From the NCBI RefSeq assembly GCF_003334785.1, contig NZ_QOWV01000019.1: a stretch of DNA of 64,000 bases. The stretch is one strand, 5' to 3'. The position numbers were made by a program. Origin of the DNA: Escherichia coli. Lineage in GTDB: Bacteria; Pseudomonadota; Gammaproteobacteria; Enterobacterales; Enterobacteriaceae. Positions 42,001-48,000 of this stretch are shown here, piece by piece (position 1 is the first letter of the stretch; the number at the start of each line of letters is the position of its first letter).

Positions 42001-45000
42001 AATGGGACGGCGTAACGCCAGCGGATACACCCGATCCCATCAATAATCCCCCTGTTGTGGATCCGGAAGGCCCATCAGTTTATCGCCCGGAGGCCGGAAG
42101 CTATATCAGCAACATTGCCGCAGCCAACTCGCTGTTTAGCCATCGTTTACACGACCGTCTGGGTGAGCCGCAGTATACAGATTCACTGCATTCTCAGGGG
42201 TCGGCAAGCAGTATGTGGATGCGTCATGTCGGAGGGCACGAACGTTCAAGGGCCGGTGACGGTCAGCTAAATACTCAGGCTAACCGCTATGTATTGCAGC
42301 TAGGCGGCGATTTGGCGCAGTGGAGTAGCAACGCGCAGGATCGCTGGCATCTTGGCGTGATGGCAGGCTACGCCAATCAGCACAGTAATACTCAGAGTAA
42401 TCGTGTGGGTTATAAATCGGATGGGCGCATCAGCGGTTACAGCGCTGGGCTGTACGCGACCTGGTATCAGAACGATGCGAATAAGACCGGCGCTTATGTT
42501 GACAGCTGGGCGCTGTATAACTGGTTTGATAACAGCGTCAGTTCCGATAACCGTTCTGCTGACGACTATGATTCTCGCGGTGTGACGGCCTCTGTTGAGG
42601 GTGGGTATACCTTTGAAGCGGGAACATTTAGCGGCAGCGAAGGGACGCTGAATACCTGGTACGTCCAGCCACAGGCGCAAATCACCTGGATGGGTGTGAA
42701 AGATTCCGACCATACCCGGAAAGACGGAACGCGCATTGAAACGGAAGGCGACGGAAATGTGCAAACGCGACTTGGGGTGAAAACCTACCTGAACAGCCAT
42801 CACCAGCGTGACGATGGTAAACAGCGTGAGTTCCAGCCTTACATTGAAGCGAACTGGATCAACAATAGCAAAGTCTACGCCGTGAAGATGAATGGTCAAA
42901 CCGTAGGCCGTGAAGGTGCGCGTAATCTCGGTGAAGTACGTACCGGGGTTGAGGCGAAAGTAAATAACAACCTTAGCCTGTGGGGGAATGTCGGTGTGCA
43001 ACTAGGTGATAAAGGCTATAGCGATACTCAGGGCATGCTGGAAGTGAAATATAGCTGGTAAACCGTATAAGCCGCATGTCGAGATGGCATGCGGCTTAAT
43101 ATTGCCGACTTCAAACGGCGCATCAACGCCTTATTTAAATCCTCCTTTTTATCCGCGATCGCGGATATCGCAGCGTTTATCCCGTAGAGCGGATAAGATG
43201 TGTTTCCAGATTGACTTATCCTCACTAAAGGATAAAACTTATAATATCCCCTTAAGCGGATAAACTTGCTGTGGACGTATGACATGATGAGCTTTCAGAA
43301 GATCTATAGCCCAACGCAATTGGCGAATGCAATGAAACTGGTTCGCCAGCAAAATGGCTGGACGCAGAGCGAGCTGGCGAAAAAAATTGGTATTAAGCAG
43401 GCGACGATTTCCAATTTCGAAAACAACCCTGACAATACCACGCTCACGACATTTTTTAAGATTTTACAGTCGCTTGAACTCTCAATGACGCTATGCGACG
43501 CGAAAAATGCCTCGCCAGAATCAACAGAACAGCAAAATCTGGAGTGGTAATGCCTAAACTTGTCACTTGGATGAACAACCAGCGGGTAGGCGAGTTAACG
43601 AAGTTAGCCAACGGCGCGCACACCTTTAAGTATGCACCGGAGTGGTTAGCAAGCCGTTATGCCAGACCGTTGTCACTTTCGCTGCCATTGCAGAGGGGGA
43701 ATATCACCTCTGATGCCGTATTTAACTTCTTCGATAACCTGTTACCCGATAGCCCGATTGTACGTGACCGGATCGTTAAACGTTATCATGCCAAATCCAG
43801 ACAACCGTTTGATTTATTGTCAGAAATAGGGCGAGACAGCGTTGGTGCCGTGACGTTAATACCCGAAGACGAAACCGTAACGCATCCGATAATGGCATGG
43901 GAAAAGCTTACTGAAGCCAGACTTGAAGAAGTATTAACGGCTTATAAAGCAGATATCCCGCTAGGCATGATTAGAGAAGAAAATGACTTTCGCATCTCGG
44001 TTGCTGGCGCACAGGAGAAGACAGCACTGCTCAGAATAGGCAATGACTGGTGCATTCCGAAAGGAATAACGCCGACGACGCACATCATTAAATTACCGAT
44101 TGGCGAAATCAGGCAGCCCAATGCGACGCTCGATCTCAGCCAAAGCGTTGATAATGAGTATTACTGTCTGCTGCTGGCGAAAGAACTTGGGTTGAATGTT
44201 CCGGACGCAGAAATCATTAAAGCGGGAAATGTGCGCGCGTTAGCGGTCGAACGTTTTGACAGGCGTTGGAATGCTGAGCGAACGGTTTTACTTCGCTTGC
44301 CACAGGAGGATATGTGTCAGACATTCGGTTTACCTTCATCGGTGAAATATGAATCAGATGGAGGCCCAGGCATCGCGCGGATCATGGCTTTTTTGATGGG
44401 GTCCAGCGAGGCGCTGAAAGATCGCTATGATTTTATGAAATTCCAGGTCTTCCAGTGGTTGATTGGCGCAACGGACGGTCATGCAAAAAACTTCTCCGTA
44501 TTTATTCAGGCTGGCGGCAGTTATCGACTCACGCCATTTTACGACATCATTTCAGCATTTCCGGTCCTTGGCGGTACGGGAATACACATCAGCGATCTCA
44601 AACTGGCAATGGGGCTTAACGCATCCAAAGGCAAAAAAACGGCAATCGATAAAATTTATCCGCGACATTTTTTGGCGACAGCAAAGGTGCTGAGATTCCC
44701 GGAAGTGCAGATGCATGAAATCCTGAGTGACTTTGCCAGAATGATTCCAGCAGCACTGGATAACGTGAAGACTTCATTACCGACAGATTTTCCGGAGAAC
44801 GTGGTGACGGCAGTTGAAAGCAATGTGTTGAGGTTGCATGGACGGTTAAGCCGAGAATACGGTAGTAAGTGAGATATGGGGTTTGGTCATTGTTAATGAG
44901 CATGACAATCATGACCGCCAACGACTGGATTCTTCCTTGGTTTATATTGGTGCGCATAATGTATATTATGTTAAATCATGTCTGAGTGATGCGAAGTGCT

Positions 45001-48000
45001 TTTCTGGTAGTCGTTATTCGTTCAGGGTTCAAGAACTTAAGCCTCTCCTCTTTCATAATTGGCCTGTGCATGGAGAAATAGCCTGGTTATTCCCTGCCCC
45101 ATGCTAAGAGCGCAGTGTCTGTCGCATAGACACTGCATACGAAAACACCAGAGGGTGCTGTTACTTATTTAAGGACGGATCAAGCGGGAATGAGTCCACT
45201 CCGGTATCAGAAATGGCTACGTCTCAATGAAGTCAGGCGACAGATGCTGAATGAACATTACGATGTCACCACAGCAGCCTATGCTGTCGGTTACGAAAGC
45301 TATCCCATTTCAGTCGGGAATATTCGCGGATGTTTGGAGAGTCACCCAAGAGAGATATTACCAGGTTAAGAAAGTCTGTCGGACAGCTTTAATAAACCCT
45401 GCACTTATCTGTTTAGAGCAATTCGGTGTTAGTTTCAGCAAGCAAACATTAACCATAGCTAATGATTTATAGCCATATTAACCATTGGTAGCTCTTGACC
45501 TTTCCTGACACTTCCCTTGTTCGCAATAATATTCTGTTTAGTCACGGTTTATAAATAACATGCATAATGAAATCGTCATGTTATTTAGCGACATAAAATG
45601 TTTTTGCAAATACTCTCTTCAACAAGTGCAGCAATAAACTTGTTGTGGAACCAATATCCAGGTCGCAGGATATCGCTATTCTACGCAAGGTTTTTATAAC
45701 TTATCCGACAGTGCCTACAGTCGAATGAGTGGTTACACCGTCAAGCCTCCTACCGGAGACACCAATGAGCAGACACAATTTATTGATTATTTTAATCTGT
45801 TCTACAGTAAGCGTGGTCAGGAACAAATAAGCATCTCTCAGCAGCTTGGAAATTACGGTACGACATTTTTCAGTGCCAGTCGCCAAAGTTACTGGAACAC
45901 GTCACGCAGCGACCAGCAAATATCATTTGGATTAAATGTGCCGTTTGGTGATATTACGACTTCGCTGAATTACAGCTATTCCAATAATATATGGCAAAAC
46001 GATCGGGATCATTTACTCGCTTTTACGCTTAATGTTCCCTTCAGTCATTGGATGCGTACAGACAGTCAGTCGGCATTTCGTAATTCAAACGCCAGTTACA
46101 GTATGTCAAACGATTTGAAAGGCGGCATGACCAATCTATCGGGGGTTTATGGCACTCTGCTGCCGGATAATAACCTGAATTATAGCGTTCAGGTCGGTAA
46201 CACCCACGGAGGTAATACATCGTCTGGCACCAGTGGTTACAGTTCTCTTAATTATCGTGGAGCTTATGGTAATACTAATGTCGGTTACAGTCGGAGTGGT
46301 GACAGCAGCCAGATTTATTACGGAATGAGTGGTGGGATTATTGCTCATGCTGATGGCATCACCTTTGGACAGCCGCTGGGCGACACAATGGTTCTGGTTA
46401 AGGCTCCTGGTGCTGATAATGTCAAAATAGAGAACCAGACCGGAATTCATACCGACTGGCGTGGCTATGCCATATTACCATTTGCGACAGAATATAGAGA
46501 AAACCGTGTTGCTCTTAACGCGAATTCCCTTGCAGATAATGTTGAACTGGATGAAACCGTGGTCACTGTCATCCCAACTCACGGTGCTATTGCCAGAGCA
46601 ACATTTAATGCACAAATCGGCGGGAAAGTATTAATGACGTTGAAGTACGGTAATAAGAGCGTTCCATTCGGTGCAATTGTCACACACGGAGAGAATAAAA
46701 ATGGCAGCATTGTCGCGGAAAATGGTCAGGTTTATCTGACTGGACTTCCACAGTCAGGGCAATTACAGGTTTCATGGGGCAAAGATAAAAACTCAAACTG
46801 TATTGTCGAGTACAAGCTTCCTGAAGTTTCTCCTGGTACCTTACTGAACCAGCAGACAGCAATCTGTCGCTAAGGAACAATAGATTATGAAATACAATAA
46901 CATTATTTTCCTCGGTTTATGTCTGGGGTTAACCACCTATTCTGCTTTATCCGCAGATAGCGTTATTAAAATTAGCGGGCGCGTCCTCGATTATGGCTGC
47001 ACAGTCTCATCGGATTCGCTTAATTTTACCGTAGATCTCCAAAAAAACAGTGCCAGACAATTTCCAACGACCGGTAGCACAAGTCCAGCCGTCCCTTTTC
47101 AGATTACGTTAAGTGAATGCAGCAAAGGGACAACGGGGGTTCGGGTTGCATTTAACGGTATTGAGGATGCAGAAAATAATACTTTGTTGAAACTGGATGA
47201 AGGAAGCAATACGGCCTCCGGTTTGAGTATAGAAATATTGGACGCAAATATGCGTCCGGTGAAACTGAATGATCTTCATGCCGGGATGCAGTGGATCCCA
47301 CTGGTACCAGAACAGAACAATATTTTGCCTTACTCCGCTCGTCTGAAGTCAACTCAGAAGTCCGTCAATCCGGGACTGGTGAGGGCTTCGGCAACCTTTA
47401 CCCTTGAATTTCAATAATCAGAGTCAGATATGAAAAGACTTCACAAGAGGTTCCTGTTAGCTACGTTTTGCGCGTTATTCACAGCAACTCTCCAGGCCGC
47501 CGATGTCACTATCACTGTTAATGGTCGGGTAGTCGCTAAACCCTGCACTATTCAAACCAAAGAAGCTAACGTTAATCTCGGGGATCTTTATACGCGCAAT
47601 CTGCAACAACCTGGTTCTGCATCTGGCTGGCACAATATTACTTTGTCATTAACCGATTGTCCGGTTGAAACAAGTGCAGTGACGGCAATCGTGACAGGTT
47701 CAACTGACAATACGGGTTATTACAAAAATGAAGGTACTGCCGAAAATATTCAGATAGAGCTGAGGGATGACCAGGATGCTGCGTTAAAAAATGGCGATAG
47801 CAAAACGGTTATTGTTGATGAGATCACTCGTAATGCACAGTTTCCACTTAAGGCAAGAGCTATCACGGTGAATGGAAACGCAAGCCAGGGAACGATCGAG
47901 GCGCTAATCAATGTGATCTACACCTGGCAATAACGTCGATTCGATTTTCTTAGCCTTCTTTTTAAATCAATTTTTAACCTTAGGATATATCATGGGTAAA

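Follow-up and report, generated by a model that had tools for sequence, protein, structure and literature searches.

Does the broken stretch of DNA downstream of hipA in this Escherichia coli genome record one deletion that struck two neighbouring genes, or several losses that happened separately? The window analysed here is the whole 64,000-nt stretch of contig NZ_QOWV01000019.1 (assembly GCF_003334785.1), and in it the remnant of an AraC-family regulator gene (yneL') is followed by a fimbrial usher gene that lacks its N-terminal half (ydeT'). A sequence-only reading, made without database searches, had described the pair as a deletion scar in an F9/Fml-like chaperone-usher operon. We are highly confident that this is a degraded F9 (Fml/Yde) locus of the kind that phylogroup A E. 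coli (e.g., K-12) typically carry, and that at least three separate loss events produced it. The fimbrial deletion is real and removed 3,279 bp; it does not account for the lesion in the regulator gene, since E. coli O111:H- 11128 carries the same frameshifted AraC remnant beside a complete six-gene operon. The genes on the + strand of the window are, in order, hipBA, yneL', ydeT', ydeS, ydeR, ydeQ and ydeP (open reading frame (ORF) listing and reading of the sequence), and the features of the locus are as follows.

43550-44872, + strand: hipA, intact, flanking the locus on its upstream side (ORF; RefSeq annotation transferred by coordinates from the JME64 locus)
44873-44976, + strand: spacer 3' of hipA, common to genomes with an intact f9 (aligns with ST131, O111, O157 and XH992 to about 44976)
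45074-45185, + strand: 112-nt stretch of the K-12/O111 allele (MAFFT alignment; blastn finds nothing similar in the O157, XH992 or ST131 loci)
45184-45392, + strand: yneL', remnant of an AraC-family regulator with a -1 frameshift, stop at 45390-45392 (alignment, Pfam, RefSeq note)
45539-45575, + strand: f9 promoter and start G, kept (matches the CFT073 promoter mapped by 5'RACE, the rapid amplification of 5' cDNA ends)
45575-45646, + strand: first 72 nt of the f9 leader, kept (alignment)
45646-45648, strand not applicable: deletion junction (blastn breakpoints, megablast, junction probe)
45647-46873, + strand: ydeT', usher remnant, codons 476-883 of 883 (tblastn, Pfam, NCBIfam)
46887-47417, + strand: ydeS, intact FimF-like adaptor subunit (NCBIfam FimF)
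47430-47933, + strand: ydeR, intact FimG-like minor subunit (NCBIfam FimG)
47992-48906, + strand: ydeQ, intact F9 tip adhesin, FmlH (match to 6aow_A; identity to the O111 protein)

The setting is that of f9. The locus lies between hipBA and ydeP and has an FmlH-type adhesin as its last gene; published work gives f9 the same two flanks and a 5' region that varies and contains hypothetical regulators (PMC3966885). This position, together with the FmlH match and the mapped promoter described below, bears out the F9/Fml-like identity that had been proposed from the sequence. In the intact comparators (sequence type 131 (ST131), O111:H- 11128, O157:H7 and XH992), hipA or a hipA remnant is followed by genes for a FimA-like major subunit, a chaperone, an 883-aa usher, two minor subunits and YdeQ. 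The window shares with intact F9 loci (CFT073/ST131, O157:H7, O111) the hipBA-ydeP site, the promoter, the usher C-terminal half, the minor subunits and FmlH, but 3,279 bp are missing from it: part of the leader, the genes for major subunit and chaperone, and the first 475 codons of the usher gene. The gene set is consequently incomplete, with major subunit and chaperone absent and the usher at half length.

Genes, order and junction are as in K-12, where ydeT and yneL are the annotated pseudogenes between hipA and ydeS, and the 2-kb segment that spans the two lesions is 100% identical to K-12-derived records, e.g., MC4100 and DH1 derivatives. Over 14 kb, the window and the K-12-like JME64 locus are 99.95% identical; they differ at 7 positions, all of them outside the 2-kb fimbrial/AraC segment. 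RefSeq orders the JME64 genes as hipB, hipA, a pseudogene for a helix-turn-helix protein, the ydeT usher, ydeS, ydeR, ydeQ, ydeP, safA and ydeO. It labels the AraC-like gene there ‘helix-turn-helix domain-containing protein’ (frameshifted; incomplete; missing N-terminus) and the ydeT usher likewise as incomplete and missing its N-terminus.

The size of the deletion was determined against O111:H- 11128 (locus L003), the closest comparator, which has a near-identical locus with an intact operon. By blastn, window positions 43000-45647 align with L003 5023-7669, and 45647-49000 with L003 10948-14301, so that the breakpoints are at L003 7669 and 10948 and the window is missing 3,279 bp. The junction falls between 45646 and 45647, inside the bracket of 45480-45724 within which the sequence-only reading had expected it, and joins leader nucleotide +72/+73 to usher codon 476, the first usher codon kept. 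About 177 nt of the f9 leader, the whole of the major subunit and chaperone genes and usher codons 1-475 are gone; the 3' half of the usher gene, the minor subunit genes and the adhesin gene remain. The deletion begins inside the f9 leader, at about +73, and not upstream of the operon. When the O111 major subunit, chaperone and usher were used as tblastn queries against the whole 64-kb window, only usher residues 476-883 were matched, and no full-length usher or chaperone lies elsewhere in it; the earlier statement that chaperone, major subunit and usher N-terminus are missing is thereby upheld.

A check for direct repeats at this junction had been suggested, and none was found. The two sides overlap by 1 nt only (the G at 45647, which can be assigned to either), and within 30 nt on each side of both breakpoints there is no direct repeat or microhomology beyond chance: the longest k-mer that they have in common is 5 nt, a length that 86% of shuffles also reach. 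A repeat-mediated deletion was rejected on these grounds. Deletion mediated by an insertion sequence (IS) was rejected as well, because no IS sequence was found at the window junction and IS elements occur only in other strains' versions of the locus. With neither repeats nor an IS element at the junction, we infer that the deletion arose by a single illegitimate end-joining event.

What is left of the usher is the second half of its barrel and the C-terminal domain. Usher homology starts at 45647 and runs for 408 codons. In the 408-aa translation of 45647-46870, Pfam detects the Usher domain (PF00577) at model positions 259-549 of 549 (E = 9e-86) and PapC_C (PF13953) at residues 329-393 (E = 4.6e-22), and does not detect PapC_N; the intact O111 usher has PapC_N (residues 43-195), the whole Usher domain and PapC_C. 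Against the NCBIfam usher model the remnant aligns at positions 470-877 of 877, with 460 bits and a cut-off of 995. Of the parts of a complete usher it retains PapC_C, the signal peptide, N-terminal domain and first half of the barrel having been lost, and the 382-aa ORF (45725-46873) is indeed the C-terminal part of an usher, as had been recognised from the sequence. The junction itself supplies no start codon: a TAA stands in frame at 45635-45637, and the earliest ATG, at 45725, has no obvious Shine-Dalgarno-like sequence before it. Internal stops are absent from the usher remnant in all nine loci compared. Having no signal peptide and half a barrel, YdeT' is probably non-functional.

Because the deletion starts within the leader, the native f9 promoter has been kept and now faces the usher remnant. 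In CFT073, f9 transcription starts at a G that precedes the major subunit ATG by 251 nt, as mapped by 5'RACE, from a promoter with -35 TAGTCG, an 18-bp spacer and -10 CATAAT, in a region that H-NS binds (PMC3966885). The corresponding elements of the window are -35 TAGTCA (45539-45544), -10 CATAAT (45563-45568) and the start G at 45575, which now lies 72 nt upstream of the junction; a promoter consensus scan lists the same TAGTCA/CATAAT pair of hexamers. By sequence, this is the mapped f9 promoter (the start G of ST131 is at L002 5648). The H-NS-repressed, low-temperature promoter could still transcribe ydeT'-ydeS-ydeR-ydeQ.

The regulator gene tells a different story. The ORF at 45190-45369 (59 aa) reads MSPLRYQKWLRLNEVRRQMLNEHYDVTTAAYAVGYES, after which the motif is lost; the frame one base further along continues it as SHFSREYSRMFGESPKRDITRLRKSVGQL and then stops. 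Set against the O157:H7 and XH992 alleles, the window has lost exactly one T, after 45300 (AGC TTA TCC becomes AGC-TA-TCC), and an alignment of the hipA-to-f9 spacer from the window, O111, O157 and XH992 shows that O111 shares this loss. HTH_18 matches the uncorrected ORF to residue 37 only (model positions 22-58, E = 1.1e-6); putting the missing base back carries the match on to model position 76 (E = 6.4e-16). The reading of an AraC-type helix-turn-helix downstream of hipA that needs a 1-nt shift was therefore correct, and the frame is not continuous. In O157 and XH992 the remnant is an uninterrupted C-terminal AraC domain of 88-89 aa (KLANRVQM...GYESLSHF.REY.RMFGESPKRDITRLRKSVGQL, then a stop), which matches HTH_18 over model positions 1-76 (E = 1.3e-22).

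Where O157 and XH992 encode the first helix-turn-helix, the window and O111 have 112 unrelated nucleotides instead (45074-45185); in the window, HTH_18 positions 22-76 are all that is encoded, split by the -1 frameshift. The 112-nt stretch contains a perfect 9-bp hairpin at 45112-45136 (arms 45112-45120 and 45128-45136), and a search for it as an inversion or copy gave no match in the O157, XH992 and ST131 loci or elsewhere in the window. In ST131 strain 751, the AraC remnant is absent and an unrelated segment of about 420 nt (L002 5097-5515) lies between the shared hipA-proximal spacer and the f9 promoter region, which agrees with the ‘variable 5' region’ reported for f9 (PMC3966885).

The frameshift is not the first damage to this gene. 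No N-terminal sensing/dimerisation domain is encoded (full-length proteins have about 280-330 aa), and RefSeq marks even the best-preserved AraC remnants of E. coli as ‘missing N-terminus’. The best-preserved version, of 89 aa, reaches only the final 80 or so positions of full-length NCBIfam AraC-family models of 280-350 aa (e.g., 199-279 of 284 and 241-318 of 327), and its weak C-terminal matches to RclR, RhaS and FtrA in NCBIfam are far under the cut-offs. When it was compared with 5.8 billion proteins for a full-length ancestor, the best 120 matches held only fragments of at most 154 aa; hits of about 70% identity, some of which bear the names GlxA-family or FtrA, lie on short contigs from metagenomes. 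The N-terminal truncation of the AraC gene was already present in all the E. coli loci that were examined, whether or not they have the frameshift. YneL is described as annotated as a pseudogene, as having an AraC-type domain and as differing in configuration from strain to strain (PMC9308461).

A survey of 5,426 complete E. coli genomes bears on how the two lesions are related. By megablast, the 2-kb segment matched 5,412 of these genomes, with at least 80% of the query covered in 1,366; most of the others match only from query base 775 (window position 45647), under a full-length usher gene. A 120-nt probe across the junction was found at full length in 1,381 of the 5,426, and in genomes with an intact operon it splits exactly at base 61. 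The K-12-type AraC allele, at 99% identity or above, is present in 3,055 records. Since the same frameshifted allele occurs next to intact operons, and in 3,055 records as against 1,381, AraC decay and fimbrial deletion are separate events, and the distribution of the alleles indicates that the decay of the regulator gene probably came before the deletion. The sequence of losses that we propose begins with an old truncation, which would have left the C-terminal, DNA-binding end of the AraC-family regulator between hipA and the f9 promoter. In the K-12-like/O111-like allele, the stretch for the first helix-turn-helix would then have been replaced by the 112 nt and one T lost after 45300. Later, the single 3,279-bp end-joining deletion would have joined leader position +72/+73 to usher codon 476.

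The simplest rival to this sequence of losses is that one event made both lesions, the deletion having also truncated and frameshifted the AraC gene to leave a single scar, as the wording of the sequence-only reading suggested. The two pseudogenes are close enough to invite that view: from the end of the AraC remnant (45392) to the junction is 254 bp, in line with the earlier estimate of about 250 bp. However, about 210 bp of native f9 sequence (upstream region, promoter and leader) lies between them, colinear with intact loci; O157 and XH992 have a remnant that is unshifted yet N-terminally truncated beside a complete operon; and O111:H- 11128, with the identical frameshifted remnant next to its complete operon, refutes a common origin. 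A single scar is thus very improbable, and of the deletion scar first described, the fimbrial half stands and its union with the AraC lesion does not. Still less credit, practically none, can be given to the view that the frameshift or truncation is a sequencing or assembly artefact of the window's record. Single-base insertions and deletions are common as sequencing errors, but the identical junction is found in the 1,381 independent complete genomes, and annotation shows the same frameshifted remnant in JME64, O111 11128, JP538, Z1323PEC0013, ES9 and AH62. Nothing that contradicts separate losses was found in the analysis. Two points limit the history as we tell it: the order of events is taken from the distribution of alleles in a recombining species and not from a phylogeny, and the deletion allele occurs in recombination mosaics, so that its spread need not have been purely clonal.

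Whether the remnant is still used is the other matter to be weighed, and it turns on the surviving genes. ydeS, ydeR and ydeQ contain no internal stops, and compared with their O111 counterparts YdeR and YdeQ show no difference and YdeS a single changed residue; the tip adhesin and two minor subunits are intact, as had been claimed. YdeS scores 237 bits with NCBIfam FimF (cut-off 200), YdeR 256 bits with FimG (cut-off 220), and residues 25-184 of YdeQ match the solved FmlH lectin domain (6aow_A, E = 5.3e-107). Such genes could remain in service if the f9 promoter expressed ydeT'-ydeS-ydeR-ydeQ and a FimC/FimD-like pair handled the products, or if the 382-aa YdeT' were itself active. The retained promoter, start site and 72-nt leader fit that possibility, as do the uninterrupted ydeSRQ, (near-)identical to those of intact operons, the stop-free usher remnant, the scores of YdeS and YdeR above the FimF and FimG cut-offs, and the resemblance of YdeQ to FimH. 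Identity to intact operons is, however, equally expected of a young deletion; within deletion-bearing loci, ydeS, ydeR and ydeQ differ by 0-2 substitutions, too few to distinguish selection from a young relic. IS-driven decay has gone further in the deletion-bearing JP538, ES9 and CFS3292, and YdeT' is left with half a barrel, without signal peptide or N-terminal domain, and with no obvious Shine-Dalgarno sequence before its ATG. We give continued use an outside chance.

Fimbrial subunits of chaperone-usher systems depend on a cognate chaperone in the periplasm and on an outer-membrane usher that is complete, with its N-terminal recruitment domain and full barrel. As the chaperone is absent and the usher incomplete, the locus would be unable to assemble F9 pili by itself, which is what had been concluded from the sequence. 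A paralogous chaperone-usher system of the same clade, type 1 fimbriae (fimAICDFGH), is encoded at another locus, and no fim genes are present at the window site. YdeS scores above the FimF cut-off and YdeR above that of FimG; the likeness of YdeQ to FimH runs along the entire protein, and what remains of the usher matches the FimD model. The slimmer chance, within the possibility of continued use, is that the orphan FmlH and its two adaptors are made under f9-inducing conditions and displayed by the type 1 FimC/FimD as hybrid pili. The F9 adhesin binds Gal-beta-1,3-GlcNAc glycans (PMC3966885), a ligand different from that of the type 1 adhesin. A literature search on the function of ydeQ, ydeR and ydeS in K-12 found nothing relevant.

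Several observations concern variation at the locus. At window position 47226, a single A/G difference gives YdeS a Ser at residue 114, where JME64, AH62 and O111 have Gly; compared with K-12-like loci, no other amino acid is changed in the three fimbrial genes that survive. In three further loci (L008, L009 and L010) the junction is identical, and the usher remnant carries 16-17 differences from that of the window (1.3% divergence), of which 13 are synonymous; ydeR and ydeQ of L008 and L010, in which these genes are present, are 100% identical to those of the window. This pattern suggests recombination tracts that end inside the usher remnant.

Other strains have lost parts of the locus in other ways. 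O145:H28 RM12761 is without the major subunit gene and has a truncated hipBA. In JP538 an IS1 is present, and ydeT' and ydeS have been lost. In XH992 an IS3-family element has inserted into ydeS, in ES9 a truncated ydeS is followed by IS629 and IS5, and CFS3292 has IS2/IS3 inside ydeT'. In BL21-type alleles the AraC remnant is fused to a FimA-like domain. These forms of decay, which arose independently and mark the locus as a hot spot, differ from that of the window in endpoints and mechanism, the window deletion being IS-free with an overlap of 1 nt.

Upstream of the locus, a large autotransporter gene lies 5' of hipB and hipA on the + strand (ORF listing). Its ORF, at 37641-43061, is uninterrupted and encodes a 1,806-aa protein of the ECSE_1600 family. 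The JME64 copy has one extra G at the position equivalent to 41594, which is among the 7 differences over 14 kb, and RefSeq calls that copy frameshifted. Given this 1-nt difference from JME64, the window does not carry the K-12 reference allele at the autotransporter gene.

The lesion is already known, both from the pseudogene annotation of K-12 and from the published disruption of f9 in phylogroup A (Wurpel et al. 2014, PMC3966885). In itself it matters little: this is an ordinary, well-known broken locus, whose two pseudogenes were recognised from raw sequence. What the present analysis adds is small, namely the exact junction, the retained promoter, the separateness of the events and the frequency of the junction (1,381 of 5,426 genomes). 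These details may help those who use the locus as a lineage marker or who ask whether ydeSRQ are still expressed. If the orphan adhesin and its adaptors were in fact displayed by the type 1 machinery, a quarter of E. coli genomes would encode hybrid pili with a galactoside-binding tip.

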